Positions 19,101 to 42,231 of a stretch of 64,000 nt of DNA are shown here, in pieces. The translations under genes and the position numbers were made by a program. The stretch lies in the NCBI GenBank assembly GCA_946616795.1, contig CAMOJU010000003.1, forward strand, positions 758-64,757, read 5' to 3'. Numbering within the stretch: the first letter of the stretch is position 1; the number at the start of each line of letters is the position of its first letter. This DNA is from an uncultured Lachnospiraceae bacterium (GTDB lineage Bacteria; Bacillota; Clostridia; Lachnospirales; Lachnospiraceae). Under the pieces are notes generated by a model, which saw only the letters and a program-made list of their open reading frames with translations, was not told the DNA's origin and ran no database searches.

Positions 19101-19180
19101 CTACCCTTTAAACTACCCTTGTAAAAGGTAGGATTCTAAACCGAGGTGTAGTGGTTATTGGAGTGCGGGGACAATATAAT
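19101..19180 (+). promoter_or_regulatory. 80-bp conserved upstream element, copy 1 (before P1)
   Basis: 60/80 ungapped identity to 42152-42231. Contains TACCCTT heptamers and ends in GACAATATAAT. Confidence 0.75.
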
Positions 19181-19382
19181 GTGATAATAATTTAACAGAT
19201 TTTAATTGTCTTTTTTGTATGTAAATTTGTATTGTGTAAAAAGCATATTCTATAATATAATGAAAAAAGTATAAAAAGGGGATAGGGGAATTCTGACTTT
19301 TTTTAAGAAATCTGTCATGATCGACTTTTTCCCATGCAATAAAATAATAATTCTTTAAGTACCATACGAAAGGATGAAATCT

Positions 19383-22300
19383 ATGAAAGTAAGAAAGACT
19401 ATCAAGAGAGCTCTGTCTATGCTCCTCTGCGTAGCTATGATGATGACGACATTTGACCTGTCGGCATTAACTGTACGCGCAGATGAGGGTGATATGACAA
19501 CCATCAGCGGAGACAACATCGTTTTAAACGGCGATGGTGTAAATGTATCCGGCGATGAGATTGGAGAGGGAGGAGACAACAATCCATCAGATATCATATC
19601 TGATAATGACGTGGATGATGCTTCGGAAGACATTGATGAAGAAAGCAGTATTTCTGAAAATAGCATTTCAGAGAACAGTATTTCTGAAAACACTATTTCT
19701 GATAACAGCATAAATCCTGTTGGAGATTCGTTGGCCACAATAGAAGTTGGTGGTTACAAGATTACAGCGGATGACGGATCTATGCCGGATAATGCATGTT
19801 ACTTGAAATCACCTAATGGGGAATATGTGATTATCAATACTGAAGAGGCACTGACAATAGAACTGAATGATGGTGTCACTTCAGCTGATAAACCGATAAA
19901 AGCGGAACATTATGGAATGACGCTTAATCTGACAATAAATAACCTTAAAATCGATGTTTCAGAGAGTTCTTGTTATTGTGGAATTATTGATGCAAGTTAT
20001 TCGTCATTAAATCTGACAATTGAAGGAATAAATGAAATTACAGGGTTTGAGTCAAAAAACCATACTCGTCCAGCAATTTGCGCGGGAAATTATTCATTTT
20101 CGCCATCTGCAGCATACCCTGATGGTGATTTGGTAATAGGTGGAGATGGAACACTTATATTGAATCATTTTGATTGTGCATTTAAGCATTCTGATATAAC
20201 AATTTCTAGTGGATGTTTCAAATTTATAGATTGTGATAAGGTATCGTTTACTACAGCACCTGATTATAAAGTTGAGGTAACAGGCGGTTCATTTAGTACG
20301 GGTGATATCAGATATCAGACTGTTGGCCCTAAGATGGATTCTGATACCTATTATGAAAAAGGTTTTCCTGTATCGGCCGGTTATCAACTTATAGAGACAG
20401 ATGATGAAGATTTTCCTTACAAAATAGTAGAGGCTACATATCAGCAGCGATTTATGGATTACATAATATCTGCTGATGACAAAACTATATTGGAAAGAGG
20501 TAAAGATTACTACATTTACAATTCTAATTCCTCGAAAGAAATTGTAGCAATTAACACTGAAAAGCCTATAACCATCGAGATGGCTGATGGTGTTGATGTT
20601 ACGACCGTTCTAATCAAAGCAGCCAAGAATGGAATGGAACTTAACATAACAATAAAAGATATTTGCATAGATTATTCAAATGTGAAAGTACGTTCTGACT
20701 ATGCATTAATTGATGCAGCAGGATCAACACTTAATCTTACGATTGAAGGTGATAATACACTTATTGGTGATACTAATTATGCTCCATCGGCCTTTTCTGC
20801 AGGAAAAATTTATAGCACTTTACCTGATGGAGACTTAAATATTGACGGTTCCGGTACTGTTTTGTTAGATAGTTTTGATATAGCTTTTAGAAGTATAGAT
20901 TTGACAATTACCGGGGCCAAATTCAGGATTATAAATACTAATTTTACATTTGGATTATATGGTTCAAGTGTGTATGAAATAAATATAACAGGTGGGTATT
21001 TTTCAGATGCTGATATAGAAAAAAATACAGTCGGCAAGGGAAATGCATCGGAATCTAGTAAAACTGTAGGCGTAGCTGTTGCCAATGGCTATATGGTTGT
21101 TGAGAGTGGTGATGATGTTTTCCCTTACAAGGTTATCGCTACCCCTGCAATAATCACTTCATTTGATTTAAGTGAGAGTGCTAAAACTGTATATTTAAAA
21201 GCAGGTGATGAATATGATGTAGACTGGGAAGACGGAGTAGGTGGAAGATCAAGTGCTTTTCTCCTTACAGTTGATAATATAACGGATGAAAATGGTGAAG
21301 AAGTTTCATTTGAAGATGCAAATGTCAGGTTTACATCTTTAAATCCTACTATAGCTGAAGTCACAAAAGACGGTGTTGTTCATGGACTTTCTGTAGGTAC
21401 GGCCAAGATTGAAATAAAAGCCGGATACGGAAATGAGACATACACACAAGTTTGTACCGTAACCGTCAAGAAGGGCTCTATTGATGTGCTCCAGGAAAAG
21501 TGGGCTCCTGTAGACGCTGAAGGTATTCCCGTTGATTTCGACCATTTTGATGAAAACGGACAGCCTGTAGATGCTGAAGGGAAGCCTGTGGCTTGCGAGA
21601 AGTGGGGACCAACCGGAGAGATGATGGTAGTCAATTCATTCGGTAACCTTGTTGAAACAAACGAGTGGATTACAAACGACTGGCAGCTTCAGTATAGCGA
21701 TTGGAAGGACAGACCGAATCCTCAGCCCGATGAAGAATTTTGGCCTTCAAACTATACTGTAAAGGTTTATACAGCCCAGACAATTACTGACTCAACGCTT
21801 AAAGCATTGAATTATACATTTAATCGTGATGGCGTATTGGAAAATGCAAACCATTCAATCACATTTGATCTTTCCGGAAAGACATGGACAGCAAGCGTTC
21901 CGTTTGTTCTTGAAGATCAGATGCTCTTTACAAACGGAATCATCAATGCAAACAAAGATCTGAATATTGGCTATACAAAAACAGTAGATACAGAAAATGT
22001 TACCGTATCAATTGGCGAAGGATTAACTGTAAATGCATCAAATCTGTATGTTGAAGAAAATACAAGCATAATTGTTAACGGTACGCTGACAGTCAAGGGA
22101 GAAACTCAACTCTATGACAACGTTAACATTATAGATAATGGTAGTGTTACTCTAAATAATGTTAACGTTGATACTAATAACTGGAATAATCCCGGCTTTA
22201 TAGGCATTGCCAGATACACAGAAGCAGCACTTTCAATTAATGGTAATGTAGAAAGTGGTGGAGTATTTTTAAATGTTGGATTGATTTCAGCACCTGTCGA

Positions 22301-25300
22301 TTATCGCGATGATGATTTTACAAACGATATTATCGACAATGTAGAAAATGAGGGCGTACTTCAAGCGATAAATGAGAAAACAGAGCTTTTCAAATCAACT
22401 CTTGCAACTTTTGACTGTGAATATGTTAGGGTATGGCAGCCATGGAGCAATCAGGGCGCAAGTTTCCCTATCACATATTATGACAAGACTGAAAAGGCTG
22501 TTTATGCAGGTGAAGAGGCATATTATGTTGAGAATATTACATCTCAATATCATTATGGTGTGTCATTTGCACAATGGTCAGATGTTGCAGAATATGTAGC
22601 TTCTATTAATGATGCTGACAGTGAATATGTTGTAAACATAAATGTAGGAGAAGTTGAAGCATTTGCAAACTTCAAATTCCCCAAGGCTGCAAGGTCAATT
22701 ACATTTAGAAGCAATTACATATTGAAAGATGACGATGGAAACCCCATATCCGAAGTAGATGAAGAGGGTAATCCTGTATATGTAATCGGCGGTACTCTTG
22801 TTAAGTACACCGGTGATCTGACCCTTACTACAGATACAGTATTTGAAAATATTGACTTTGTGAGAGTTGATTCAAATAAAGATGAGACTCCTTATACCCT
22901 TACAAAGGTAGAAATAGCAGGACATGTCCTTTCAACCAGAGGCGAGGTTACATTCAATACACCGGTTAATTTCACTGATAATAAGAAGAGCGGTACTCTT
23001 CGGGTAGAAGAAGGCAAGCTCTTTACGGGATATGTTGCGATAGGCGGCGCAGGTGATAATGGTGGTGACTACCATGACGGAGTTGTTCAGAAATATCTCG
23101 AAAACTATGCTGTAAAAGCATATTTTGACGAAGAATACAAGTATAACAAAGATGACGGCGTAGCAATTATTGCAGGTCAGATTAACGGAGTAGGAAATCT
23201 TGAAGTCAGAGATGCTCAGCTCTTTGTAGTAACTGACTACATGACATTTGCAAGCGGTAAATATACATTTAATGCACCTGTATTTACACCAACTAATATT
23301 GATGAAGGTGCAGGTACAATTATCGTATCCAATATCAACGCAGATTATTTTACAGGCCAAAATACTGATGCAGTATTTGTGGAGGGCATGAAGACAGCTG
23401 CAGAAAACCTTAAAACTAAGGCAAAGGCAACTGTTACAAATGTAAATATTTACAATTACGGTAGATTTATAGCTGATGAAATGCAGCTTACAAATGTAAT
23501 ACTTAACGGTGCTACCGTACAGTCCAAGGGACTCTTTAATATCACAGGTATCCTCAGCAGTACAAACGGAGGAAACCTCCTGGCTACTGCAACGGATCCC
23601 AATAAGAATCTCCCTTACTTAAATGTCAGCGGTGATGTTATAACTTACGAAATGTGTGAGATCAACATTGCCAATGTTGCATCATTTAATATTTTCAATA
23701 CTGATCTTGAATACGAATATCCTGCGTATTCAGGTGTTGCAGGTGAAGGCGAGGCACAGTCAGTACTTCTTATTACAAAGACCGGTACTGCGGAACAGTT
23801 CCGTCCTCAGTACTGGAGACCTATTGATTGGGATAATTCTGATATTATGGCAGAACCGCCAATTTATGCTTTTATAACTGATGGAGAAACAGGTAAATTG
23901 TTAAAACCTCAGACCAACATTCCCCTGAGTATGTATGGTCATTTGGATGATGCAAATAATCTTGTATATGACTATGAGGGTAATTCATGGCAGGATCTTG
24001 CATTCGGTCCTGAGAAGACTGATGGATTCTATACAAAGAAATCCGGTGATAATATATACCTACTCTCAGGAGCAGATATATCAGTGGCTCTTGCTTATGA
24101 CGAGGATCAGCATGCATATTATGATGGGAATAATAATTACGTTAACGAGCTTGAGGCAAATGCGGGTAATATCATCGGATATTATTCGACATGGGCTGAT
24201 GCGGTTGTGGCAATCAATAATCTGAAGAACTCGGATGCATGCTATGAAATCATTCTTATCAATGATGCAGGCTCGGCAGAAAAACCGATAACACTCAGCT
24301 TCCCGACAGCAGCCTGTCTGTCAATGCTCCGGGTTACAGGTATAGATAATGCCAAAATATATTACACGAACGGTCTGACCCTTACATCCAATACGATATT
24401 TGAAGATGTCATACTTGCTCCAGTTAAGTTAAATGACGGAGTATATCAGGGTACAGCACTTGCAATCAATTCAGGTGCGTATAATCTCGATATGAACGAT
24501 GTGTTTTTCCCTACTGTAAACGGTGGGGCGTGTACGCTTGCCTCAATTACAGGTAATGGCAGAAATACAGTAAATATAGAAAGTGTAGAGGGAGGAGTCA
24601 ATAGTAATAATAATCTGGTGCTCACAGGCGGTATCACAAATATTGGTACATTAAATATTAATCGTGGTAAAGTTGTGATTCAGAAAGGTGACGTCAAAGT
24701 TGTTAATCTTAATATAATGGAATATGGAAGCACGCTGACTATCATATCAGGTAACATAAATGCAACCAGCATTTTCAGTAAGGAAACAACTGATATTATC
24801 CTGGAAAAAGGAAAGATTGACGCAACTAACGCTGACATTAACAGAATGACAGTTAATGGAGACGTTACTATAAAAGAATCCATAACTATAAGGGATGGAG
24901 CTAATACCGGCAAATTTACTGCTTCAGATTTAACATTGGGTGATACTATGGTTAAGTTGAAGGCAAATGGAAATGTAGATATTAAGGGAACGCTCACAAT
25001 GAATAGTGCCTCAAGGATATATGCTGAGGGACAAACATATGCAGTCACTATAAAAGACATTAAACTGCTTGGAACGGGAATGATTTATACCTGGCGTAAG
25101 AAGGATGGTTCAACCAACCTGAAGATTACAGGTCAAATAAATATGGACGGAAATTATAAACTAGAGTTATATCAAAACGCAGCCGATGAAGACGGCGATA
25201 TGGTTGTTGCAAACCCGGTTGATAAATTGTCCGTTCAGAACGGCAAAGTAACTCCTGGTGCCAAAAATCTGATTGCCAATATAGGAACGATTCCTTCTGA

Positions 25301-28300
25301 ATACTTTGATTTTGGATATTATCATTATGATGAAGGTCAAACTGTACCTGATGGAGTTATCATCGGTTCCAATGTTCTTTTAAAGTACAACGGTGGTCTC
25401 TACTACGCAGACAGTAGTGTTGCACCGTTTAACAGCAACTTTGTATATCTTGATAAAGAGACAGTCGATGAAAATGGAGGCGTTGCTTACTACGATCATT
25501 CAAGATACCTTGACTGGAATGAAGCTGTTAAGGAAATTAATTCCATTAACGATCCTACAGCAAAGTATCGTATTAACATTGGAGCAGGTGTAACAGATAC
25601 AAACCTTACTGATGCAAATGAATATGGAACCCTTACACTTCCCGCAGCTAAGAAGTGTGCATGGTTGACTGTAAAGGGTAATCAAACGTTAGATCCGAAT
25701 CCGGAACTTTGGTTTACTAACACAAGCCTAACGCTCACAACTAATGTGACAGTAGAATCTCTTAAATTAGGTATGAGAGCGGCAGTTTCGTTATCCCTTG
25801 GTTCATATACATTTATCCAGGATAAATCATGGTTCCCTAGCGGTCTTAAAGGAGTTACAGGAAGCTCGGCAAAGGGAACATCAAAATATGTGATTAAAGG
25901 ACCTTTTTATGATAGTTATACATCAGTTATGGGCAATATCAATAATGTAGGAACTCTTGATATTATTGGTACTGATGTAAGAGTATTTGGAAACATAAAT
26001 GTTGGTAATGTTGTTAAGCGCGGTGATGCATATGTTAGTCTGCAGGCAACTGGAACTGTAAACATAGGAAATATCGAATCATATGGTAATGCAGTTCTTG
26101 AATTAGATGGCTTTGCAAAGGTTGCAACAAAGAATGTTAAAGATGCAAAACCTGAGATAACAGGTATTACATCTAACATCACTATTACAGGTATTATTAC
26201 ATGTGAGGATTCTGATTCTCCTGTACAGGTAAGCCTTTATAATGCAGCACTTGATGTTGGAACATTTGATGATGCCAACTTGCTTTCGCCTGATAATATT
26301 GAAAATCAGAATAATTATTCAAATGGTGCAGATTTCCTTTATACCACAGGTATCACATTTGCAAAGGCTCTTAAGGCTGACACAAATATGATCAGATACG
26401 TGAACGGTACAGACGGCATGATTATCAAGAAGAATGGTAATCTTGTATGGGTTAACAGAGATCGTGTTCCTTATGAACTTCGTTACGGAACCAACTCTGT
26501 GCCTTGTCTCACATTTGCAGATGCCGTAACAGAGATTAAGAATCTTAATAATAAAAATGGTGAGTATACAATTATCCTCATTGCTGATGGTCAGCATGAT
26601 GTAAATGCGGATTATCCTGAGAACTTTACGATGCCTACGGCTGCTACTCTTAAGAGCCTGACAATAAAGCCTGAGGGTAATTCTCCAGTTAACCTTTACT
26701 ATGGTACATACAATGCCACAAAGAAGACGACGACAGCAGTAGCAAAGCTTGCATTTGCAACAGATACTGTTATTGAAAACGTAAAATTCATCGATGCTGA
26801 AGCAGCTGCAAATCTTGTACAGGGAGACTATCCTAACAGAGCAGCCCTTAATGTATCACTCGGTGGAAAGTATGTAACATTTGATAACGTAACATTTGAA
26901 GGCAGAGGAGTTATCTTTGATGGTGGCAAGGGTACGATGGCAATCGGAGATGGTGGTCTTGTTGCAGGTACAGAGCCGGTAACTCTTAATAGTAATTATT
27001 CCGGATGCAGTGTTGTACAGGGTGAGATTAAAAACCTTGCTACACTTGTTACAGCAGAATGTGAAACATTTGGAAGCGGCAGCGGAGAAACTCTTGTTAT
27101 TACAAGATACATTGCTGCAGCAAACGGAACTATGAAGGATGGCGCTCTTGCGACAGTTACTAACCTTAACCTCATAGGAGCAACTATCCAGGTAGATGGT
27201 TCGATAAATGTAACAAATATTATTACAGGAACAGAAACAGCACAGTCAATTGTGATGGCTGATACAGCATTTACCGTATCGGGAACTGTTACTGCAGGAA
27301 GTGCAGACAACCTTGCGCTTATCGGTCGTCAGAAAAATGATGGTAAGACACCTCAGTTGACAATCAGTGGTACGGTTGCTCCTGGCAGCAATCCTGTAGC
27401 AATCGGTATCCTTCCTTACTATGACAGTAAGAGTGAGAAAACAGACAGTTCATATGAAACTTTGGCTGTACCTGAGACAGGTTTATCATTAGTGACTGCA
27501 TCAAAGTGCACTGCTGACAGATTTGTGACAATTACAGAACTAGATGTACAGGACAATATTGTCGGACAATTTGAAACAATGGGATTTGATCCTACACAGG
27601 CATCCGATCAAAGAGGTATAGGTCTTGTTAAGAGTGGCTCTGTCATAATGGCCTTTGACGGAAGTTATATCCATATCGTCCTTTCCAAGATGGCAGATGC
27701 AACAACAGGAAACGTACCTGTTACAGGTGAGGATGTTATCGGATATTACAACACATTCAAGGAAGTAACTGATACAATAAATAACCTGAATAATAAGAAT
27801 GCTCAGTATGGTATTTCACTGCTCGATGATTTTGGAAGTGAAAACGAGACAATCGCAATACCAAATAACTCAAAGGCAGCAGGTATTTGTATTGAAGGAT
27901 GCTTTTATTATGATCAAGAACTTTCGTTGAAGTCTCTTGCAATAACAAACAATCTTACATTATCCAATGTTATAGTTACAGTTAACGGTGCAATTACATC
28001 AACGAAAGGCACGACGCTTACATTAGAAGGTATTGCCCATATCCAAGGTGCAAAAGCAATTACACTTGAAAATATAGATAATAAATGTAGTAATGAAAAT
28101 GGTGGAATATGGTTTGAAAGAACCACATCAAATGTTAGTCAGCTTAAGATTAACGGTACTGTAACAAACAGTGAAAATGGAAAGCTTTATCTGCTAATGC
28201 TTGATGAACGAGCAAATGTAGAAAATTATGTTGTATCTTCTGTAGAAGAGATTACTAAAGGTAATACGAAACAACTTTTTACAGCTCCAAAGGTAATGCA

Positions 28301-31300
28301 GGAAGATCTAGTAATCTATGTTGATGGTAGTGACTGTAAATTTGTTGATAACGAGCAAAGAACGCTTGTAAAGGCCAAGGATGCATTTTATTACGTAAGC
28401 AATGAAAAATTTGAAGATTCAATGGTAAATTTGGCGGTTAATAACGGTACATCCGGAACTTTCCTTGACCTCAACCAGGCACTTCTTCAGATTAAGGCAT
28501 TAGCTGATTCGACAAATACTTACACGGTAATTCTTCGTGGAAATGTATCGGATACAGATGTACTTGATACAACAGCTCACTCAAAGATTGACATGCCGGC
28601 TACAAATACGGCTGGTTCAATCTCTGTTAAAGGAGATGGAGATACAATTACGTATAGCGGGGATATTACCGCATATGTTGCAGCAGATGGAGCACTTACA
28701 TTTAGTGACGTAAAACTTGATAATGTAAATCCTTCTACAGGTGCACCTGTTAATACAGGTAAGATTACCCTTAACAGAAACAGTGCTGACAAGACAGGAA
28801 CAGTAACACTTTACTTTAGTGACGTAACATATACCGGCGATCTTGGTACGATTGCAGGTACAAAGGGTGTTACCGATGTTTACCTCGATAGCAATATTAA
28901 ACTGGCAACAGGATTCTCCAATATCAATGAATTGACGATAGGTAATGGAATCTGTGTTGAGACCCTCAAGTCAGATACTGGTATCGGAACAATTACATTT
29001 ACCGGAAATGCTATATATGAATCGTCAAGTACGGTTGTGGATAATATCAATATAGCTGCGAACAGCAAACCGCTAATCAATACATCGGGCGGTGATAAGT
29101 TTAAGATCAATAAAAATGTAAATGCAGCAAATGAGAATGCCACACTAACAATCGAACTGAATGGTGGCGATTATGAGAATGCAAATCTCGTATATGCACC
29201 CCTTGCAGATGCATCGGTATTTAAAGCAGCGGCTTATGTTTATGATGAAAATTACGTTTCATACAAATCAGGCAACTATGTCCGTGTAGGTAATATGGAT
29301 GATATGACAGTCAGGATCGAAGGCAAGTATGAGACAGCAGCCGGCGATGAGATGAACCTGTCATCATATGCCAAGAATTATAAAGATGCCATCGATATGA
29401 TCAACACCTGGAAGACCAAGGCGGATTATACGGTTGAGCTCCTTAATGATGTGTATGCAACAGGTAAGGATAATGCCTATGCCGCATTTGTAACACCTAC
29501 GGCTGCTAATGCTAATTCTGTGACAATCAAGGGTCAGATTGAAAAAGAAGATGACGGAGAAGAGATAAGCAGAACCGTTATCGCCTTTACAGGAACGATT
29601 AAACCTACAGTTGATGTGATATTTGAGGATGTTGCATTAGATGCCGGAAAAGCCGTAAAGGGTGAATGGGTATCGGATGGAGAGATATCTCTCGACCTCA
29701 GTTCAGCTTCAATAGATATGGGTAATGCTATAACAGCCGCGTATAACAAAGATGATGATTCAATGAATTATAGTGATAGTCTTTGGGTAAAAACTATTAA
29801 AGGAACAAAAGGTGAGCTGACATTACGTGATACATTTATATATATAAGTGATGTAATTAATGTTGGAACACTCAAAATTGATGGATATGTAAATGTTATT
29901 AGAAATTGGAGTGTATTAAAGAATATTACCATCGGATCTGTTATCGGTATAGATATTGATGTAATTAATGAAGATCAGCTGATCATTGATACGCCTATAG
30001 GATCATCACCCATGCTCAAGATTACAGGTGAAGTAACGGGACTTGATAATAGATATGAAATAAGTACGGATGATGAAACGGGGGAGGAAATATCTAATCT
30101 TACAGATTACGGTCTAATCCTTCGTCCCATAAAGAAAGATTCATCCGGAGAGGTCAGATATCTGAATGAATTAGAATTGGATGATCTGGTTCTGGAAGGT
30201 TCTGAGAATACTGCTCAGATGGCTAAGATGAAAATAGCCGATATTGCAAAAGTACCTACCTCTTGTGTGGGAGTACAGGCTAATGGATATGATCTTGATT
30301 GGTCACCTTTTGAAGTATCTGTTACCAAGTCAGGCGGATTCATTTATCTGACAAGGGAGGATAATCTCTGCGTAGATGTTATTAGAACGAGTGGTCAGGA
30401 GTATATGTCACGGTTTACATCATTTGCAGATGCTGTAGCTGATATTGATAAGCTTGCAGATAAAGATGCAGACTATGAGATACATATTACAGATAACTGT
30501 GTCGGAGCTTACGACTGCTGGAGTAGAAAAGCATTCGGAGCAATAACCCTTCCGAAGAATGCAGCTTTTGTAATGATAAAAGGTTGTAAGGATGAAGAAA
30601 CCGGCGAAATGTATGATACAAGTATCTGCACCACAAGTACATCGATAACTGTAAATGTGCTTACGGTATTTGATCATGTACAGTTTGTGAGCGTAAAGCA
30701 GAAGTATAATAATCCTGCACTTGGTTACTATTATGAGCAGAATCCCACACTGATGTCATACAATATTGCGAATAATGCTGATCTTGATCTGTATGGTTGT
30801 TATATGGCGGCAGGTAAGATAACGGGAGATACGCTTTATTTGGACAACTTTTCGATTGTTAAATTAACCGGAGGCTTAACGGTAAAAGATCTTATATTAT
30901 CAGACAATTCAGTAATCACGACTAATGGAAAGACCACGATAACGACACAGAACAAGACAGTTATCATGGGGGATTCCTCAATTGACGCGCCACTTGCAAA
31001 TGTTACATTGAAGGGAACCACCATTGGTGATCCCGATACTGATACGTGCGGTGGAAACTGTATATATGGATCCAATATCACACTTACAGGTGATACCATG
31101 TCGTATGGTGGAACAATTACTGCATGTGGAGAAAATGCTGCCGGAACAGGTAAGTTATCAATTCAGAATCTGACAATTGGAGGAGTAACGGAATACGATT
31201 ATATTGGTGGTGATGATGCTTCAAATCACGATATTAATTTATCTGCAAAGGTTGATGCTTCCGGAAAATCTCAGATCAATATCAGCGGAACTGTATCGAG

Positions 31301-31538: not shown

Positions 31539-31564
31539 AAATGGACCCTTCGGGGTCCATTTTT
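31539..31564 (+). terminator. Intrinsic terminator after P1
   Basis: AAATGGACCC-TTCG-GGGTCCATTTTT. Confidence 0.88.
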
Positions 31565-31774
31565 GATTTGAAATATTAGATGGCAATAGTAACCATAAAC
31601 ATCATCTAATATATAGCAAAAATACCGTAGAAAATTTAAGGGATTGTGGGGTAAAATATCTATTAGGGTGTATAAAAGGGAGATTGGGGAAATATCGGAT
31701 TATCATTTAAATCTTTATTTTTTCTGACAATTTTTCCGTTAATTATTTGTAATCGCGAAAAGGAGCAAATTATT

Positions 31775-34700
31775 ATGAAAAGAAAGAAATTCGTAAAGAG
31801 AGCGCTGTCTTTTTTTCTTGCGCTATTAATGACATTGTCATATATACCGGAGATAGCTTATGCATATTCGGTCAATGATGGTACAGGATACAGCATCTCG
31901 TCTGATAATGTTCAGTTTAATGATGATGCATCCAATGATATTGACGATGTTCAAATATCGGAAAGTAATAATGATGTTTCCGGCGAGGATGCATCTGAAA
32001 CTATCTCAGATAATAAACCTGATAATGAAGAAGACGACAGTAACATCCAGGACGATCAGGAAGAACAGGATGATAGTGATGTCGATGAAGTGATCGAGGA
32101 TGACAGTATTTCTGAAAACGATATCGATGAAGAAAGTATTTCTGAGAATGTTGCTGAGTTAGAGGAATTAGAGCCGGTTGGGAATGATAGTTACAAGGTA
32201 AGAGTTTCATATCCTAGCGGAATTTATGAATATGATGAGAATGGTAATCCAATCTGGTCAGTGGAAAATATGCTATTTGATTCCATTGACGAGGCTTTTG
32301 GCGCATTTTATGACGGTACATTTATAACAGAAAATAATGATTCACCGATAACAGGAAGATATGAAATAATTCTTAAAAATAATGAACAGATGACAGAGGA
32401 CTTTATTATCCCATCATATGTGCGATTTTTTAATATTACAAGTGAATATGGTACCGAAATTTATTCTCTTGATATGAATGGTCATACAATAAAAACGGGT
32501 GATAAAGATAATAGTGAACTCGATGTTTATATAAATGATGTAAAAATTGTAAGTAATGCAGATGAGTCTGGTTCAATTGAGTTAAATTTTCTGGAGCCGC
32601 CAACAGGAAATGATGTTTTTGGAAAATATTTAAGTGTACTGCCGGAGAATATAATCTGTGAAAATGGAACTGAAATATGCTTGTTTGATAATATTGAAAT
32701 ACGTTCCCCGTATGTGTATTTACGAACGAAAGAAAATAATAAATTAGTATTAAATGATACAATCATTGAAACAGCATCATGTTCTGTTGCTCAGGGAAAA
32801 TGGACAATTAAGGAAATAAACGCTGATTGGTTAAGCGTTAATTGTTTATATGAAGAAAATGGAGATGGGACATATTCATGGACAAAAGCAACACTTGTTG
32901 CGGATAATGTAACATCAGAATGTTCTTTGATGGATTGGTCAACATTTAGGGCTATAAGTATAAAAGGTGAAGCGACAATAAAAAATCTGACATTGAATGA
33001 AGCACGTTTGTCAGTCGAAAAGGCATATGTTTATGGTATTAGTGAGAATGGAACAGGTATTCCATCGGTTTTTTGTCCCTTTGAGCCATCTCTTGATGTT
33101 GATAATATTACACTTACAAAAGGCCCGAGTTCATACGCTTCATATTATGATTCTGAAACTAATTCGGATAATAATTATGCGGTTCAGGTTAACACCGGAT
33201 GTAAATTGTCATGCGATTCATTTGATATGAAAGCGGGTACTTTTTGTAATAGAGGATCCGTAAATTTGGGTCAAGCGTATGTTCAGGATGATTTGATTCT
33301 TCAAAAAGGCTCATCTTTCACGGTTGATGATATTTCTATGGGAACAAGGGGAGAAATATATTTTAATGGTGGATGTACATTAAATATAAATAGTACCGCA
33401 ACTTTATATAATCCATATTTTGAAAATATATATGATAATTATTTAGGTGAGGATCGTGTAATTACTATTAATCGAAAAAATGATACTTCCGTAACCTTTA
33501 ATGGTAATGCTTGTTGGGATAAGGATTTTAAAATGTTGCTTCGAACCGTAGACAACAATGGAAGTCTGATCGGTACACCCGCAGGAACAAAAGTTTTTTC
33601 AGCAAGTTTCTTCTCATTAATAATAGATAATGTAAGTGTGGAACAAACGGAAGAATTTTCCGAATATGATGTTTTAATTGCATATGGTTCCGATGTGGTT
33701 GTCGGAAAGAAATCATTTATTGTTGGAACGGTGGAACCGTTAGGACCCAATGAGGTATACACGCCTGATAGAGAGTTTACTGAGCTCGACAGATTTGTAA
33801 AATGGTCCGATGCTGTAACATACATCGACTCACTTAATAATACAAATGTCGATTATGCCATAATGATCGAGGGTGATACAGATAATTATGAAGCGCTTAC
33901 GTTACCCAAAAATGTTAAGTCTTTTAAAATAATAAGTTCTAATTTTGAAACATTTAAGGAAGAGGATGAAAGACCGTATCTTTCATTTATAGGAAATATC
34001 ACATTAAATACAGATTTAATAGTTGAAGGCGTCATATTAAAACCGATAGCTAAGAACGGAGACGTATACATAGATAATACCGGAATGACAGTATCATTAA
34101 ATGGCAAATGTCTGTATATGTCTGACTCGGAGTTTTACAGTAAGATTGCGTCTGTTACCGGTACAGGTAATTCATCAATTTATCTGATGAGAAATAATTT
34201 GTATGAAGAAAAACCTGCTCTTGAATTGACAGGTAAATTTAGTGTGCCTGACGCTTCAATCAGTGATTACATTGTTAAGGCGTCTGATATACAGATTACT
34301 TCAGTTTTAATGATCACAAACAGTACAATCGAGTCAGACGGAAACATTTCACTTGGAACAGTCTGGGCATTTAACAAAAACGGTGACAAAAACATATTTG
34401 TCACAGGAAACCTGGCAACAAATAAGGTCACAATAAGCAATACTGTAAAAACCGGATATCCGTCAACAGTTGCAGATGTGACTATTCTTGGAGCGGGAGG
34501 TGATGGAACTGATACAGCCCAGCTTAATGTGGATAATGTAATATCATTAAGATCAAAATATATAGAGGATCAGATAGATAAAGGAAACGGAATATCATAT
34601 GGAGATTTCACTGATCACACTCTTGTGACTGGAGCAAAGGTACCGGCATCACTTTTCGTAATCGGATTTGAGTATGATTATTATTTTGATGAGGAAACAT

Positions 34701-37700
34701 ATGAATCCGAGTATACAAACTGCACGGCTGACTTTTTGACTCAGAAATCGGGAAATGATATTAAGGTTTCTGCAGTTACACCTAAAGCGGTAACACTGTA
34801 TACGACCGGATTTTTTGTTGATGAGTACTGCAATCCGGTAGGCTCATACGAAACTTTAGCTGATGCAATCGCAGAAATTGACAAACTTGCAAATGCTACA
34901 GCCGAATATGAGATCCGCATCAATCCGGAGGATTGTGAGACGGTAACAGTTAGCACTGCGAATTTCACTATGCCCAAGGCGACAAGCCTGGCAGCCCTCA
35001 CCATAAAGAGTGCAACAGCTGAACCGGTTGCAATTAATTTATTAAATGCTCTTCCGGCCCTTACATGTGATTTGACTCTCGAAAATGTAAATCTCGTTCC
35101 GTCGCAGGGTAAATTAAGCATGTCGCTTAATAAATATGCTCTGACATTAAAGAATACTGATATTGACGGAATCGTTACCGGTATAACAGGTGGTTCAGCT
35201 ACAGGTACATCATGCCTTAATATCATAGATACAAATGCGACAGCAGGTAATCTTGGATTATTTGAAGTAAACGGCAAGATTAACAATGTGGGAACTATCT
35301 CTCTTGATGGCATAAAGCTTAGCGTAACAGATACAGTTAACATAGGTGACCTGACTCAGGCTGGTGAAACCGGTGCAATATTTGAGGGTACGGTAAAAAT
35401 TACGCAAAAGAATAATGAGATAACCGCTACAACTCCAAATATAACTATAAACGGAAAGATTTCCGGAGATAAATTAAAAATCGGTGCTCTTACCGAAAAA
35501 ACAGTAGATGGCGTAAAAACATATGTACCTGTTGAGGAATATGGCTTTATCAATTATTCAAGTTATGCTACTGACACAGGTATTATAATAGCAAAAGCAC
35601 TTAAGACTGATCCAGACGGTGTGAAATATGTGACCGGTACAGGAATGATGATAAAGAAATCAGGTAATCTTGTTTATATAAACAGAAATTATGTTCCATA
35701 TATTTTGGAATATGATGATAATACGATACCCTGTCTTACTTTTGCGGATGTTGTTACAGAAATCAATAATATAAATAATAAGAACAACTATTACACGGTG
35801 GTTCTGAGAGCTGATGCAAACGGAGACGTGAATGTGGGAGCACCGGAGGCATTTACTATGCCTGCAACAGCAAAGCTTGCCGGTCTGACTATCACTTCAA
35901 ACAGTAATGTCAATCTTTATTATGGAACAGCTAAGAACGGAAAAGTTACTGCTGTATCAAAGCTTGCTTTTACAACAGATACAATCATAAGCAATGTTAC
36001 TTTTATAGATGCTGAAGCATCAGTAAATATGACAGACGTCAATTATCCATACCGCGCGGCTCTTAATATATCTCTTGGTGGCAAGCAGGTTTCTTTTGAG
36101 AATGTTGTTTTTGAAGGCAGGGGAGTGATTATAGACGGCGGCAGGACAGGAGTTCTTACTCTTGTAGGAGATACAGGATTGCTTGCCGGATATGATGTTG
36201 ATCAGTTACGTGCATCTTATGATGGATGTAATGTTATTGAAGGCGAGTTCAAAAACATGAGTACAGTATATCTTGATGATAATGCCGTACTTCTAATGAA
36301 GAGATATATATCTGATAATAAGGGAACAACTCGTAAAGATGCTTCAATGAATTTATCTACTTTTGCAGGATTTGGAAACACTGTTCACGTTGAAGGATCA
36401 ATAACATTAAAAGATATAACATCAAATTATGATGCTAATCAGAATATCATTATAGCTGACAGAGCATTTACGATATCCGGAACAGTATTTGCAGGTGCAG
36501 AAAACAATCTGGTACTGATTGGCAGACAGAAGAATGATAATGCTTTGACACCTTTCCTGAGTATAACGGGTACTTTTAATGCGGAAAGTTATCCTATAGC
36601 GGTAGGAATAATGGCTTATGATATCAATGATTATGATCTGATCATACCGGAAGTAGATACACCTGTATCGCTGCTAAGTGCATCAAAATGCAATGCCGCT
36701 GATTTCGTTACGGTCGTTAATTCAGATTATGCCGGGGACGGAACTATTGCAACTATTGCAGAAGTTGAAGGATTTAATCCGGATAGCGATGAAGCACAGC
36801 GTGGAATCGGACTTATTAAAGATAAAACTCTGATAAGAGCATATGACGGAAGCTATATTCATTTAGCGCTTGTCGCAGTTGAAAATGAATATGAAATGGC
36901 AGACGTTGCTGGAGATGCAGTTATCGGATATTACAACAGTATACCTGAAGCGATGTCTGCTATAAATACTATTAATGATAAGACAGTTCATTATACCATT
37001 ATACTATTGGATGATATCGGTAATTCAACAACTACAGTGACAATTCCGGCAACTGCAAAAACAGCGGGTATCTCTTTCCAGGGATATGGGGATGAAAGAG
37101 TTCTGACACTTAAAACACTGGTGATCAGCAATAATTTGGCCATTGTTAATCTAAAGATTAATATCATTGGTAATGTCACAACTACGAAAAACATGACCCT
37201 TACCCTGAATAATGGATCGGTCCTTTCAGCAAAGGGAACGGTAACCCTTGAGAATATAATAAACAGAGAGGGTAATAATAGAGTTGAATATACAAGAACA
37301 GCAAAGGATGCTAACCAGCTGAAGATTAACGGCAGAGTAACAAACTATAATGGCGGGCAGCTTGCTGTTAAGATGACAAATGAAGCAGGTAATGAATATA
37401 CAGTAGCAGAATATACTGTTGAAAATATTTCAGAAATCTCTAAGCCTGCAAATAAACAGCTCTTTGTAGCACCACTTGTAACCGTGTCTGATATAAAGAT
37501 TATGATCGGTACAAGCGAATTAAATGAATCATATAACGGTACATCCTCAATCGTTGTCAAATCAAAGGATGGATTCTATTATCTTCCGTCAGGCATGCAG
37601 AATACTATAGCTGCACTCGGATACGGGGACAGTGAACCTAATGCATATTATATCGATATGAACCAGGCACTGTATCAGATCAAGGCAATAGCCGACAGGA

Positions 37701-40654
37701 CAGCGGACTATACTGTATACATTGATGATACGATTGATGTAAATGTGATAGATACTGTTGCACATTCAAAAATAGAAATGCCTACAACGAATACTGCAAG
37801 GTCGATAAAGATCACGGGATTTGACGGTGATGAAACAGATATGTATTTCAGCGGTGATATCTCAGCATTTGTGGCAGCAGGCGGAAGCCTTACATTTGAA
37901 GGTATAAAGATGGTACCTGTTGCGGCAGCAGATAAGAATGGCGTCATGGTTAATTCAGAGACAAGCAAGATAACACTCGGAAGAAACGGCGCTGACAAAT
38001 CAGGAGAGGTGACACTTAACCTGATTGAGTGCAGTATAGAAGGATATCTGAACCAGATCGTCGGAACGAAGAATGTAACGGACGTATATGTCGATTCTGA
38101 TATTACATTGAAGGCAGGATTTACAAATGTTTATAATCTCACAGTAGATGGCACTACAGGAGCTACAGTGATCGCAGGAGGAAACAGTACGGTCGGAAAC
38201 CTTTATCTGAAAGGATCGGATGCCGGCTTTGTATCTTTAGGAACAGCAACTGTTGATACGATAAAGATTGATTCAAATCTTGGATTTGAAGGACCGTGGA
38301 TCGGAGCCGCAGGACCGGCCAAGTTCAAGATCAATAAGACAGTTGAATCTGAAAATACAAAAGTGCTCATAAGATTACTTGATACATCAGATAAAACGCT
38401 TTCATATGCAACAATAAATGATGAGAGCTATTTGGCTGACGAAGATGAGAATTATCTTGATAAAGATCTTATATATGCTCCATTAGCAGATACATCTGTA
38501 TTTACCGCATATCCTTATGGAGAAACAGAAGGAAAAACGATCGCGGGCGATGAACCGACTGTGTCATATAAAAATGGTAATAATATCCGTATAGGAAATA
38601 AAGCCGAGATGGTAATCACAGTTGAGGCAGATGGTTTATTCACATATGCAAAAGACTATGCAGAGGCGATTAAGTCTATTAATACATGGAAAAACAAGAC
38701 TGATTATACCATTACATTCTTAAGTACAGGCGCTGTGACAACTACGGCTGCCGGCAAGGACCCCGGAGCATTTACTTATCCGGCGGCTGCCAATGCATCA
38801 TCTCTTACAATAAAAGGTACTGTTGATGGCATAAACATAACCGAGATCCAATTTACCGGTGCAATAAAGCCTGCGGTTGATACAACATTTGAGAATGTTG
38901 TACTTAACTGCGGTAAAATTGCAAATAAAGCATTTATAGAGCTTGGAGAGGTGGCACTTGATCTTGGAACGGCATCTCTTGATATGGGTAATGCGATAAC
39001 AAAAGACATATCATACGGACAGGTAGCCCAATGGCCTGATTTGTTTGTGTCTTCTATTAAGGGTACAAAAGGAACCCTTACATTAAGAGATTGTACGGTG
39101 TATGCAGACAGTATCAGCATGGGAACTCTTAATGTAATGGGAACAGTTGATATTTCAACGAGGAGTGCAATACTTCAGAATTATTCGATTGGTTCGATAT
39201 ATGGAACAGAAGGAGATGATAAATTATTTATTGACGCACCAAAGGCTGCATCACCAATGCTAAAGGTTACCGGTTATGTTAGAGGTATGGAAGAGATAGG
39301 TATCAGACCTGTCTTTAAGGACACAACCATCGGTCATAACAGATATTACAGAATGGAAGAGCTCGACGGTATTGTCACAAATGGTACTGAGACCACCGCA
39401 GTGCTTAACAAGATGAGACTTGCTGATATGGCAAAGGTACCTACCGATATCGTCAATGTATATACGAATTTTGCTCATTCAGAAAAGTTTACGAATGCAA
39501 ATATCAACAAAGTTTCCGGATTTATTTATCTGACTTCACAGATAATGAGCATTACGGTAACCGATGAGAATGATTATTCATCTCAATTTGTGTCATTTAT
39601 GGATGCTGTAACAGACATTGATAAGATTGCGGATAAGACAGCAGATTATCAAATAACACTTAAAGAAGATACGGGCAGAGCATTTTATTATACGTCAAAT
39701 GAGATTAAGGCTGTAACTCTTCCTAAAAATGCTGCAAGTGTGACTGTTAAGGGTGAGAATGTAGAAGTACCGGGAGCAGCTAATGATATCGACGGAGATG
39801 GAAAGTGCACGCTATATACTTCAGGTACATCACTTGTGGTCAATATTCCGACAACATTTGAAAATATATCTGTAAGACCTGTTAAGAAGACGTCAAGCTA
39901 TAAGAGTGGCAATACCACCATGTATTATTATTCGAATAATACATCCGGGCTGGCAATCAATATTGGAAACAATACATCTCTTGAACTAAATGAAGCATAT
40001 CTGGAATATTTTATAAACAAGATAAGCGGAGGAAGTCTCGATGTGTATGGTTCTAGTATAGATGATTATGCCGGAATATTAAAAAATATCACGGTAAAAA
40101 ATTTACATATTCAGAATTCATATGTAATGGTACGCGTAGCAAAGGCGACTATAACATGTCAGACATCAGGATATATAAAAGAATCTAATATAGTATGTGA
40201 AACAGGAAATATATCACTTAAAGATACAGAAATAATCAGATCTTCAATAGAAGCCGCCAACATAAATCTTACAGGTATCACTACTCTTAATGAAACAGTA
40301 GTGAGTGCTATCAGGGATAAAACTGTTGGACAGGGAAAAATATCCATGGCAAATGTTGCCCTTGAAGGAGAAGACAGTACTATACAATACAAACAGGATA
40401 AAGCAGGAAAGCCAATGCTGACCATATCAGGTACAGTAATATCGGACGGTGCAAAGGCAATATTGGGATTGTATTACAGTAACAGTGATTATAAATCACA
40501 AAACAATAAGGTGATTATCTCTGTAGGTACGATTTTTGCTACAGCAGCAAAGGTGACAGATGTAAGTGTATTTGGTACGGAAAACAACTTTGTAACAGGC
40601 TGCAGCATGATGAAATCCGGCAACAATATTGTATATTCTCGCGTAATGTACTAA
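31775..40654 (+). CDS. P2: giant secreted paralogue of P1 (2959 aa)
   Basis: Signal peptide, acidic spacer and eight capped modules; the last five are colinear with P1. Both proteins end in KSGNNIV(F/Y). Confidence 0.85.
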   Translation: MKRKKFVKRALSFFLALLMTLSYIPEIAYAYSVNDGTGYSISSDNVQFNDDASNDIDDVQISESNNDVSGEDASETISDNKPDNEEDDSNIQDDQEEQDDSDVDEVIEDDSISENDIDEESISENVAELEELEPVGNDSYKVRVSYPSGIYEYDENGNPIWSVENMLFDSIDEAFGAFYDGTFITENNDSPITGRYEIILKNNEQMTEDFIIPSYVRFFNITSEYGTEIYSLDMNGHTIKTGDKDNSELDVYINDVKIVSNADESGSIELNFLEPPTGNDVFGKYLSVLPENIICENGTEICLFDNIEIRSPYVYLRTKENNKLVLNDTIIETASCSVAQGKWTIKEINADWLSVNCLYEENGDGTYSWTKATLVADNVTSECSLMDWSTFRAISIKGEATIKNLTLNEARLSVEKAYVYGISENGTGIPSVFCPFEPSLDVDNITLTKGPSSYASYYDSETNSDNNYAVQVNTGCKLSCDSFDMKAGTFCNRGSVNLGQAYVQDDLILQKGSSFTVDDISMGTRGEIYFNGGCTLNINSTATLYNPYFENIYDNYLGEDRVITINRKNDTSVTFNGNACWDKDFKMLLRTVDNNGSLIGTPAGTKVFSASFFSLIIDNVSVEQTEEFSEYDVLIAYGSDVVVGKKSFIVGTVEPLGPNEVYTPDREFTELDRFVKWSDAVTYIDSLNNTNVDYAIMIEGDTDNYEALTLPKNVKSFKIISSNFETFKEEDERPYLSFIGNITLNTDLIVEGVILKPIAKNGDVYIDNTGMTVSLNGKCLYMSDSEFYSKIASVTGTGNSSIYLMRNNLYEEKPALELTGKFSVPDASISDYIVKASDIQITSVLMITNSTIESDGNISLGTVWAFNKNGDKNIFVTGNLATNKVTISNTVKTGYPSTVADVTILGAGGDGTDTAQLNVDNVISLRSKYIEDQIDKGNGISYGDFTDHTLVTGAKVPASLFVIGFEYDYYFDEETYESEYTNCTADFLTQKSGNDIKVSAVTPKAVTLYTTGFFVDEYCNPVGSYETLADAIAEIDKLANATAEYEIRINPEDCETVTVSTANFTMPKATSLAALTIKSATAEPVAINLLNALPALTCDLTLENVNLVPSQGKLSMSLNKYALTLKNTDIDGIVTGITGGSATGTSCLNIIDTNATAGNLGLFEVNGKINNVGTISLDGIKLSVTDTVNIGDLTQAGETGAIFEGTVKITQKNNEITATTPNITINGKISGDKLKIGALTEKTVDGVKTYVPVEEYGFINYSSYATDTGIIIAKALKTDPDGVKYVTGTGMMIKKSGNLVYINRNYVPYILEYDDNTIPCLTFADVVTEINNINNKNNYYTVVLRADANGDVNVGAPEAFTMPATAKLAGLTITSNSNVNLYYGTAKNGKVTAVSKLAFTTDTIISNVTFIDAEASVNMTDVNYPYRAALNISLGGKQVSFENVVFEGRGVIIDGGRTGVLTLVGDTGLLAGYDVDQLRASYDGCNVIEGEFKNMSTVYLDDNAVLLMKRYISDNKGTTRKDASMNLSTFAGFGNTVHVEGSITLKDITSNYDANQNIIIADRAFTISGTVFAGAENNLVLIGRQKNDNALTPFLSITGTFNAESYPIAVGIMAYDINDYDLIIPEVDTPVSLLSASKCNAADFVTVVNSDYAGDGTIATIAEVEGFNPDSDEAQRGIGLIKDKTLIRAYDGSYIHLALVAVENEYEMADVAGDAVIGYYNSIPEAMSAINTINDKTVHYTIILLDDIGNSTTTVTIPATAKTAGISFQGYGDERVLTLKTLVISNNLAIVNLKINIIGNVTTTKNMTLTLNNGSVLSAKGTVTLENIINREGNNRVEYTRTAKDANQLKINGRVTNYNGGQLAVKMTNEAGNEYTVAEYTVENISEISKPANKQLFVAPLVTVSDIKIMIGTSELNESYNGTSSIVVKSKDGFYYLPSGMQNTIAALGYGDSEPNAYYIDMNQALYQIKAIADRTADYTVYIDDTIDVNVIDTVAHSKIEMPTTNTARSIKITGFDGDETDMYFSGDISAFVAAGGSLTFEGIKMVPVAAADKNGVMVNSETSKITLGRNGADKSGEVTLNLIECSIEGYLNQIVGTKNVTDVYVDSDITLKAGFTNVYNLTVDGTTGATVIAGGNSTVGNLYLKGSDAGFVSLGTATVDTIKIDSNLGFEGPWIGAAGPAKFKINKTVESENTKVLIRLLDTSDKTLSYATINDESYLADEDENYLDKDLIYAPLADTSVFTAYPYGETEGKTIAGDEPTVSYKNGNNIRIGNKAEMVITVEADGLFTYAKDYAEAIKSINTWKNKTDYTITFLSTGAVTTTAAGKDPGAFTYPAAANASSLTIKGTVDGINITEIQFTGAIKPAVDTTFENVVLNCGKIANKAFIELGEVALDLGTASLDMGNAITKDISYGQVAQWPDLFVSSIKGTKGTLTLRDCTVYADSISMGTLNVMGTVDISTRSAILQNYSIGSIYGTEGDDKLFIDAPKAASPMLKVTGYVRGMEEIGIRPVFKDTTIGHNRYYRMEELDGIVTNGTETTAVLNKMRLADMAKVPTDIVNVYTNFAHSEKFTNANINKVSGFIYLTSQIMSITVTDENDYSSQFVSFMDAVTDIDKIADKTADYQITLKEDTGRAFYYTSNEIKAVTLPKNAASVTVKGENVEVPGAANDIDGDGKCTLYTSGTSLVVNIPTTFENISVRPVKKTSSYKSGNTTMYYYSNNTSGLAINIGNNTSLELNEAYLEYFINKISGGSLDVYGSSIDDYAGILKNITVKNLHIQNSYVMVRVAKATITCQTSGYIKESNIVCETGNISLKDTEIIRSSIEAANINLTGITTLNETVVSAIRDKTVGQGKISMANVALEGEDSTIQYKQDKAGKPMLTISGTVISDGAKAILGLYYSNSDYKSQNNKVIISVGTIFATAAKVTDVSVFGTENNFVTGCSMMKSGNNIVYSRVMY

Positions 40655-40660
40655 GAATCT

Positions 40661-40704
40661 TAAAGGGGCTGTCGCATTAAAGCTACAGCCCCTCGTTGTT
40701 TTTA
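40661..40704. terminator. Hairpin terminator between P2 and the LuxR gene
   Basis: AGGGGCTGT ... ACAGCCCCT between convergent stop codons. Confidence 0.7.
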
Positions 40705-42077
40705 TGCTCATTAAACATTTTCGATAATTCGGTCCTGTTGGGTACGCCGGTTTTCTTTAAGATATTCTTCATATGAAATTTGACGGTATTTTCAGAGATA
40801 AACAGGGCTTCGGCAATCTTGCTGTTTGAACCGCCCTTGATCACTTCCTGCAAAACCTCTATTTCTCTTGAGGAAAGATTGTTCGCATTTGCAAAGGCCC
40901 TTAACTTCTCCTCTTCATTAACGGTATCGGGGGAAGTATTATTTTTGATCATTATACCGGGCAGATAGACATTCCACCAAAGTAATACCGCGCATATTAC
41001 AGAAGTTAAGAAAAATACGGATATCAGGATAATAAGGATAACGGGATAATCAAGCAGGGGCGTACCGAGCAGAGTTCCGCCGGATTCACCTATTCGTCTG
41101 CAAAGTGTTCCGAATCCGGCGAGAAAAACCGCATCCTGCGCATAATCCGAAAATAATGTAATGCTGTAAACGGTTATAAATCCGGTTATAGCATAATTAA
41201 GTGCCCAAACCACAATATTCCCGATTGAAAAATTGTTAAACAGAAGGGATATGAACGGGCATATGAGTGTGGCGACACATAGCAGCAGACCGCCCTGCCT
41301 TGATCTGTCACATACTATGCCTGCTATTATGAGCCCTACTACAGAAAAAGCCCTGCTGTACTCTATATTGACAGACCCGCTTGTAAAATCGGAGATAGGA
41401 AACATAAATCCAAGACTGCGGGTTGTTTCTATAAATGTTATCGTAAGCATAGACAAAACTATGATTTTGGCAGGGATTTTAGAAGGTTTTTCCTTTACCG
41501 AATTGATCTTATCCCCGGCATCATTAAGCGGGAAATGAATTATAAGCAATGAGATGACAGCAAGTAATCCATACAGGACAAGAGAAAAGTCGCTCTTTAG
41601 GAATTCTCCATCCATTGGAATGGATACCAGCCAGGATGACAGGGTTCCGATTGACCATCCGATTCCGATAGTTATGGCCTTAAATCTTTCGAGGGCTGTC
41701 AGGTACATCAGTGAACATGCGAAAATAACACCGCAGAAGAAATCCATGGATATTCCGAATATAACAGACAGTTGAACGGTCGAAACTGTTATGGCGATTA
41801 TCATAGAAATAAGCTCACAGACAATTGATATCGTAAATGATACTTTTAAATTAAACAGGTTTCTTTTACAACATATTTTAGTGAAAATTGAAAATGCAAC
41901 GATACCGAGTGCCTGTACAAAATAATCTATGATATTAGCAAAAAGATCCACAGTCTCTTCGGGCAATCTGTCCAATAATCTGTATATCCAGCATAAATAT
42001 CCTGTACCTACCCATGAGTAAACTATACCTATGAGAAGGGTAGTTAAAATTGTGTTTCTTATCATTTCTTTTTTCAT
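40683..42077 (-). CDS. Polytopic (~12 TM) membrane sensor fused to a LuxR/NarL-type HTH
   Basis: About 370 hydrophobic aa, then LSSREIEVL...SNSKIAEALFISENTVKFHMKNILKK. Confidence 0.9.
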   Translation of the reverse strand: MKKEMIRNTILTTLLIGIVYSWVGTGYLCWIYRLLDRLPEETVDLFANIIDYFVQALGIVAFSIFTKICCKRNLFNLKVSFTISIVCELISMIIAITVSTVQLSVIFGISMDFFCGVIFACSLMYLTALERFKAITIGIGWSIGTLSSWLVSIPMDGEFLKSDFSLVLYGLLAVISLLIIHFPLNDAGDKINSVKEKPSKIPAKIIVLSMLTITFIETTRSLGFMFPISDFTSGSVNIEYSRAFSVVGLIIAGIVCDRSRQGGLLLCVATLICPFISLLFNNFSIGNIVVWALNYAITGFITVYSITLFSDYAQDAVFLAGFGTLCRRIGESGGTLLGTPLLDYPVILIILISVFFLTSVICAVLLWWNVYLPGIMIKNNTSPDTVNEEEKLRAFANANNLSSREIEVLQEVIKGGSNSKIAEALFISENTVKFHMKNILKKTGVPNRTELSKMFNEHKNNEGL

Positions 42078-42151
42078 TACCTAGTGAGAATATCACATTT
42101 AATAATATTTAACAATGAGAACGAAGTCCCAAAACCCTTATAAATATGCGC

Positions 42152-42231
42152 CTACCCGATAAACTACCCTTAAAAAGGGTGGGATTCCAAACTACGGTGT
42201 AGTGTTAATCGGTTCATAAGGACAATATAAT
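42152..42231 (+). promoter_or_regulatory. 80-bp conserved upstream element, copy 2 (between LuxR and P3)
   Basis: TACCCTT-AAA-AAGGGTG 7-3-7 repeat, ACTAC-GGT-GTAGT, and GACAATATAAT. Confidence 0.75.

Follow-up and report, generated by a model that had tools for sequence, protein, structure and literature searches.

An 80-bp element in two copies, one of them beside a LuxR-type gene

The DNA analysed here is a 64,000-nucleotide (nt) stretch from an uncultured Lachnospiraceae bacterium (assembly GCA_946616795.1, contig CAMOJU010000003.1, positions 758 to 64,757), hereafter called the window. It contains genes for several large proteins, which we number P1 to P4, and among them a gene for a membrane LuxR-type regulator. 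Our subject is an 80-bp element that occurs twice, in both cases in front of a gene for a large exported protein (P1 or P3), and these two genes flank the LuxR gene. Copy 1 precedes P1, and copy 2 sits within the 221-nt divergent region that runs from the LuxR gene to P3; the initial annotation had placed both copies so, and the coordinates confirm it (Table 1). The 208-amino-acid (208-aa) gene upstream of copy 1 ends in an intrinsic terminator, and copy 1 therefore opens a new transcription unit; P1 is followed by a terminator of its own and then by P2 (2,959 aa).

The two copies are in direct orientation relative to each other and align without gaps at 60 of 80 positions, while their flanks agree at just 19/60 positions before and 23/60 after the element. 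The gapless identity between unrelated flanks, from which the initial annotation had started, was thus borne out, and each sub-motif that it named is found in both copies: GGTGTAGTG, GACAATATAAT, the hexamer CTACCC twice per copy at a distance of 12 bp, and a 7-3-7 inverted repeat (TACCCTT-GTA-AAAGGTA in copy 1, TACCCTT-AAA-AAGGGTG in copy 2). A repeat search of the window recovered the pair independently as family D17 (19101-19161 against 42152-42212, 79% over 61 nt).

A genome-wide motif scan, which had been proposed as a check, located only two sites, both of them the predicted ones. With an nhmmer profile built from both copies, the whole 2.4-Mb, 122-contig genome yields these two sites (E 1e-22) and a next match at E = 10. 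The spaced repeat CTACCC-N6-CTACCC occurs twice genome-wide, against ~0.02 occurrences expected from the 286 single CTACCC hexamers, and GGTGTAGT-N20-23-TAWAAT is found at these two sites exclusively. Local alignments of the regions before P2 and P4 gave no sign of a third copy, scoring at the level of shuffles (p > 0.1); we therefore make no claim for the GGTGTA and GGGATT resemblances upstream of P2. The predicted regulon defined by the element comprises P1 and P3 only; P2 and P4 would be reached only by read-through. We consider it likely that the element is a composite of operator and core promoter served by the neighbouring membrane LuxR/GerE regulator, so that one sensor would switch on both P1 and P3.

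The membrane regulator

The GerE domain (PF00196) of the regulator covers residues 400-454 (E 3.6e-20, Pfam) and is matched by all 14 aligned homologs. Before residue 365, a Kyte-Doolittle scan gives ~9 clear hydrophobic segments and ~3 weaker ones, and the N-terminal part is predicted to consist of about 11-12 hydrophobic helices resembling the MFS fold; MFS_1 matches were obtained for 4/14 homologs (best E 3.8e-8). A receiver domain is absent from the regulator in the Pfam scan. Its database homologs are annotated proteins of Lachnospiraceae metagenome-assembled genomes. A protein scan of the genome contigs with a single LuxR sequence returned only an unrelated Maribacter helix-turn-helix (HTH).

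Predicted operator array and core promoter

The element carries four hexamer boxes with the consensus (AAA)CTACCC, two forward at element positions 1-6 and 13-18 and two reverse at 26-31 and 46-51, the last reading GTGTAG. Boxes 2 and 3 form the palindrome CTACCC-N7-GGGTAG, and box 3 of copy 2 stands in the context AAAAAGGGTGGGA. Counted from the -10 box, box 4 occupies -41 to -36, and 10 bp upstream of it there is a degenerate partner, CTAAMC. The -10 box at positions 75-80 is TATAAT here and TAAAAT in relatives; it begins exactly 22 nt after GGTGTAGT in six sequences, namely copies 1 and 2 and the loci L034, L036, L039 and L069, which are described below. No sigma-70-type promoter using these -10 boxes, and no usable -35 partner, was found in a plus-strand consensus scan. 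A consensus-like -10 without a -35, and a box abutting or overlapping the -35 position, are features of an activator-dependent, class II-like sigma-A promoter, and the element shows both. Taken together, these motifs predict that the 80-bp element combines an array of operator boxes with a core promoter. A CCCTTATAAATA block directly precedes box 1 of copy 2; relatives keep it in their LuxR-adjacent copies, and copy 1 lacks it. We take this block as a candidate -10 region for a minus-strand promoter of the LuxR gene itself (TATTTATAAGGG).

The layout could also be read as a transcribed element acting as a structured 5' leader RNA, as boxes 2 and 3 can pair as an 8-bp hairpin and -10-like sequences lie ~10 nt upstream of both copies. 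We consider this exceedingly improbable. The window has no Rfam match, the fold z-scores (0.37, -1.47, -0.28 and -0.94 for both strands of both copies) are not unusual, and the copies fold differently. The stem of boxes 2 and 3 neither extends nor covaries in relatives (alignment A2), where conservation is limited to the hexamers; in addition, the central motif is a direct repeat, and several lineages have no third box.

A CTACCC-N24-GGGTAG pair at 42009-42044, which falls among the first 25 LuxR codons, is element-like above the shuffle level. We rejected it as an operator: it is formed by T-T-L and W-V-G codons, is not kept in the relatives with regulators of 62% and 59% identity, and is probably fortuitous.

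Conservation of the element beside regulator homologs

Regulator homologs were found by protein search in a minority of the relatives' genomes, and the closer ones come from metagenomes: P0002 at 62% identity (locus L034), P0003 at 59% (L036) and P0006 at 51% (L039), with L069 as a further metagenome contig. In L034, L036 and L069 the entire 80-bp element occupies the divergent position beside the regulator gene, aligned without gaps to both window copies. In this alignment (A2) 47/80 positions are invariant, including CTACCC, TAAACTACCCT, GGT-GGATTC-AA-C, GGTGTAGT and the -10; substitutions among the orthologous elements fall in the spacers and spare the boxes and the -10. The intergenic length around copy 2 and its box positions are within 1 nt of those in the 62% relative. 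A BLAST-type search of 60 relatives with the 120-nt region around copy 1 found nothing real, its best match (G060, E 7.6e-5) lying inside a coding open reading frame.

These invariant positions bear on a rival account, in which a single gene duplication, or gene conversion, left both copies behind as relics and their likeness reflects shared descent without implying a shared regulator. In line with such an origin, P1 and P3 have domains in common (E 2e-24), and 27% of amino acids are identical where their N-terminal regions align. On the other hand, the flanks described above are unrelated, and the 5' untranslated regions differ in sequence and in length (~200 vs 68 nt). The first 300 coding nt of P1 and P3 agree at 171/327 in a global alignment, against 75% for the element, which is therefore far better conserved than its surroundings. 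Moreover, most positions at which the copies agree are also invariant in orthologs from species whose regulator is only ~60% identical. A duplication relic is thus quite improbable as an account of the pair, and selection for a common regulator is the reading that we follow.

More distant homologs (30-51%) keep CTAYCC boxes. The divergent intergenic region carries CTACCCcaaaaaCTACCCC in G035 and G003 (regulator 50%), CTACCCccttcCTAtACCaaaaCTACCCC in G015 (36%), CTACCCcaaaaCTACCCttacaagttGGGGTA in G331 (34%, another genus) and CTATCCaaaaaCTATCC in G355 (30%), and direct repeats at 11-12 bp are present in G035/G003, P0005, G331, G355 and G015. At the P0006 locus the arrangement is compact, CTACCCC-TAT-GGTGTAGT-N22-TAAAAT, with a single CTACCCC-TAT-GGTGTAG palindrome whose axis is near -44; at P0007 the boxes are 21 bp apart, and still more distant homologs have repeats of GATACC (G269) or GGTACC (G370). 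The spaced pair CTAYCC-N5-6-CTAYCC has 1-2 matches per genome in G035, G003, G331 and G355, one of which in each genome adjoins the LuxR gene. Among ten regulator-adjacent intergenic regions, CTACCC/GGGTAG was the top enriched hexamer (8/8 independent lineages vs 0.22 expected), and overlapping enriched words lengthen it to AAACTACCC. In this way a full element or CTACCC boxes stand beside every close regulator homolog examined, in eight lineages from the same genus, other genera and metagenomes. Box and recognition helix vary in step: regulators with (S/T)xNTVKFH have CTACCC beside them, those with NTVRFHVS have CTATCC, and those with AESTVKYH have either GATACC or GGTACC.

Outside the window, AAACTACCC has a sole other non-coding instance in the genome, at contig C11:4738-4746. 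This box is single, with no second one at a distance of 11-12 bp; a TTACCCC follows ~50 nt downstream.

The boxes might instead be bound by another transcription factor encoded elsewhere, the membrane LuxR gene being merely a neighbour. In its favour, one genome (G031, see below) has a box pair and no LuxR homolog. Against this, the element accompanies the LuxR gene in no fewer than eight lineages and across a complete change of target gene, and box sequence and recognition helix co-vary; the sequence comparison in this way strongly supports the link between element and LuxR gene that the initial annotation had proposed. No other regulator is conserved at these loci: an HTH-HipA pair is confined to this genome and close strains, and a two-component pair occurs only in G331. 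We consider a factor other than the LuxR protein unlikely, and continue with the LuxR protein as the one predicted to bind the boxes.

Several points weigh against this reading. P1 and P3 are partial paralogs, and part of the similarity of the copies could be inherited and not selected. The box geometry is not uniform: the two palindromes differ in internal spacing (N7 vs N4), and in the G035/P0005 clade the distance between the repeats and GTGTAGT is 14 bp longer, with alternative -10 candidates present. G031 has a 19-nt identical box pair, yet its genome is without a LuxR homolog and without family X, the target family described in the next section. The number of lineages compared is modest, and the direction of regulation (activation), the co-expression and the transcription start are all what we infer from sequence. 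The box pair of G031 may most simply be a remnant in a rearranging locus.

The G031 orphan, CTACCCCAAAAACTACCCC-N9-GGGGTA (L060, about 12085-12125; G031:C49:59100-59117), lies directly downstream of a tyrosine-integrase gene and is followed by ~1.1 kb of AT-rich non-coding DNA and then a membrane GGDEF gene.

Change of target gene and history of the locus

Synteny between locus L034 and the window extends to either side, with the aldo-keto reductase and 208-aa genes to the left and the radical-SAM, shikimate dehydrogenase, shikimate kinase and GH130 genes to the right. The slot between them is filled in L034 by the regulator gene and a divergent unit of two genes (685 and 281 aa), and nothing more. 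The first gene of this unit is a member of family X, as we call a conserved family of secreted proteins (677-1,040 aa; alignment A1) for which Pfam gave no informative match, only isolated weak matches in two members. Each regulator-bearing genome tested has one family X gene, always the first gene divergent from the regulator. A search of the window's genome found no family X gene, and neither BLASTP nor hhalign detected homology of family X with P1 or P3. The regulator-element pair is retained here despite the loss of family X. Copy 2 keeps the ancestral length, the box positions and the CCCTTATAAATA block, and is therefore the orthologous promoter, now heading P3; copy 1, which has no CCCTTATAAATA block, is therefore the derived duplicate before P1. 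No homolog of the first 700 aa of P1 was found among 44 other species of the genus.

In a related strain the P1-like gene retains copy 1 at 79/80 positions, the single change making box 3 a perfect GGGTAG. The P3-like gene of that strain (88% identical) follows directly after the P1-like gene, with a P2-type upstream region and N-terminus, no regulator gene in between and no element. A second strain's P3-like gene is also without the element. As these P3-like genes (88-89% identity), with no regulator gene directly before them, have other upstream regions and no element, the element tracks the regulator and not the P3 gene family. With its P2-type promoter and N-terminus, the P3-like gene of the first strain is a mosaic or chimeric gene.

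In comparison with L034, L063 and L064, the region 18966-55584, between the 208-aa and radical-SAM genes, is a hypervariable island, which here comprises P1, P2, the regulator gene in inverted orientation, P3, a HipBA-like pair and P4.

Such an island raises the question of whether the repeats are recombinase or integrase binding sites at the junctions of mobile or rearranging DNA. The region between the 208-aa and radical-SAM genes is mosaic among strains, the G031 box pair is just downstream of an integrase gene, and transposase genes flank the L036 locus. The island in the window, however, has no recombinase gene; the distance to the -10 and to the downstream start codon is fixed in all lineages; and the copies, in direct orientation, are only 75% identical. 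We regard recombination sites as very improbable and keep to a regulatory role of the element.

Predicted mechanism and comparison with known systems

In the mechanism that we propose, the regulator would remain membrane-embedded and contact the boxes through its C-terminal HTH, in dimeric or higher oligomeric form. Once bound, it would recruit RNA polymerase to an otherwise weak promoter in class II-like activation, in answer to a ligand sensed by the MFS-like domain. Regulator and operator form a conserved cassette that in relatives is predicted to drive one divergent family X gene. In this genome family X is missing, with the ancestral copy of the element now heading P3 and a second copy placed before P1. 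One sensor would thus probably turn on two lineage-specific giant surface proteins together.

Polytopic-membrane LuxR regulators are, to our knowledge, numerous in gut bacteria, and almost all of them are orphans for both ligand and DNA site. Among those with a described role, DadR, HcdR and CadR of Eggerthella lenta are LuxR-type activators of adjacent genes with 10-12 transmembrane (TM) segments, and the membrane domains of that family share <20% identity among members (Dong et al. 2022, PMC9734109). The comparison with our regulator is one of architecture: both have a polytopic N-terminal membrane domain and a C-terminal GerE/LuxR HTH, and both are encoded beside the predicted or known target, one regulator per local target. 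The Eggerthella proteins are described there as shown activators, and activation at our locus is suggested by analogy. The systems differ in host, which here is a Lachnospiraceae (Firmicutes) and not a member of the Coriobacteriia, and in targets, which are secreted or giant surface proteins here and reductases or dehydroxylases in Eggerthella. A term search of PMC9734109 and its section on family distribution gave no operator sequence.

The initial annotation had likened the boxes to TACYYMT heptamers, the NarL/NarP site as given in PMC4886647, citing Tyson et al. The analogy is approximate. The regulator has a GerE-type HTH like that of NarL. The half-site core TACCC resembles TACYYMT, with the heptamers of the element matching at 5-6 of 7 positions (TACCCTT 6/7, TACCCGA 5/7) and those of some relatives in full (G015 has TACCCCT, 7/7). 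The arrangement is another one: the boxes form direct repeats 12 bp apart and a 6-7-6 palindrome (CTACCC-N7-GGGTAG), not the 7-2-7 inverted pair to which a phosphorylated response regulator binds. Nor does the regulator carry a receiver domain, in contrast to NarL. Among the PDB matches of its HTH, the NarL C-terminal domain (E 3e-7) is one of many of GerE type.

In class II LuxR-type promoters, the lux box is centred near -42.5. The element resembles them in its good -10, its lack of a -35 and a site abutting the -35 position, and P0006 has a single palindrome near -44. Unlike those promoters, the proximal site consists of a strong half-site with a degenerate partner, and more boxes extend to ~-86. 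The regulator also differs from the class II lux regulators in being membrane-embedded and not an acyl-homoserine-lactone receptor.

The regulator class is already known, and the regulon prediction, though well supported, is conventional and brings no new regulatory principle. The term search of PMC9734109, its section on family distribution and a literature search on such Lachnospiraceae LuxR proteins, whose sole result was an unrelated review, gave no prior description of the operator, of a Lachnospiraceae subfamily with exported-protein targets or of the target swap. The locus supplies a well-supported predicted operator and promoter layout for one Lachnospiraceae subfamily and a natural experiment in which one regulator-operator pair serves unrelated exported proteins in different species. 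On this basis, binding assays and ligand screens with reporters can readily be designed. The locus also suggests that expression of giant adhesin-like wall proteins depends here on an external signal. We put forward more tentatively, as possible rather than probable, a broader reading: that the MFS-like LuxR with its AAACTACCC box array is a portable sensor-plus-operator cassette of Lachnospiraceae, rewired onto a lineage's exported proteins: in relatives the family X protein and in this genome two lineage-specific giant wall-bound proteins, the latter by promoter replacement and promoter duplication in a hypervariable island. If this were true, the 10-12-TM LuxR class would gain its first defined cis-element, and reporter fusions would offer a direct handle on the ligands of orphan membrane sensors.

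Table 1. Positions of the features discussed; window coordinates unless a locus is named.
Feature	Position	Strand	Remark
Intrinsic terminator of upstream 208-aa gene	18986-19017	+	
Element, copy 1	19101-19180	+	Upstream of giant protein P1
Copy 1, boxes 1 and 2	19101-19106, 19113-19118	forward	CTACCC
Copy 1, box 3	19126-19131	reverse	AGGTAG
Copy 1, box 4	19146-19151	reverse	GTGTAG
Copy 1, -10	19175-19180	+	TATAAT
P1	19374-31532	+	4,052-aa secreted giant protein, Big_2; likely start ATG at 19383; first predicted target
Terminator after P1	31539-31562		
LuxR-type regulator	40683-42077	-	464 aa, polytopic membrane protein, C-terminal GerE helix-turn-helix
CCCTTATAAATA block	42135-42146	unassigned	Just upstream of copy 2 box 1; from alignment with relatives
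Element, copy 2	42152-42231	+	Ancestral position, between LuxR gene and P3
Copy 2, boxes 1 and 2	42152-42157, 42164-42169		CTACCC
Copy 2, box 3	42177-42182		GGGTGG
Copy 2, box 4	42197-42202		GTGTAG
Copy 2, -10	42226-42231	+	TATAAT
P3	42299-47719	+	1,806 aa, transglutaminase-core, Big_2 and choline-binding-repeat; second predicted target
Family X member	L016 3498-5531		
Family X member	L018 10968-13556		
Family X member	L019 12311-15232		
Family X member	L031 310-2682		
Family X member	L032 4652-7774		
c-di-GMP enzyme gene	L041 1614-3482		
c-di-GMP enzyme gene	L032 1644-3074		
c-di-GMP enzyme gene	L060 9857-10984		

Other features of the loci

Conserved motifs of family X include VEVPEGY, YATYYHP and GTQIGSGKGVYW, and at several family X loci the next gene encodes ~210-305 aa without an informative Pfam match. 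Enzymes of cyclic di-GMP (c-di-GMP) metabolism (EAL, dCache-GGDEF and membrane GGDEF proteins) recur beside the regulator cassette or its remnant in three lineages. Between P3 and P4, at 47894-49484, the genes for a Cro/C1-type HTH protein (149 aa) and a HipA_C-like kinase (388 aa) overlap; the two make up a HipBA-like toxin-antitoxin pair within the surface-protein island, which is present too in the related strain L064.

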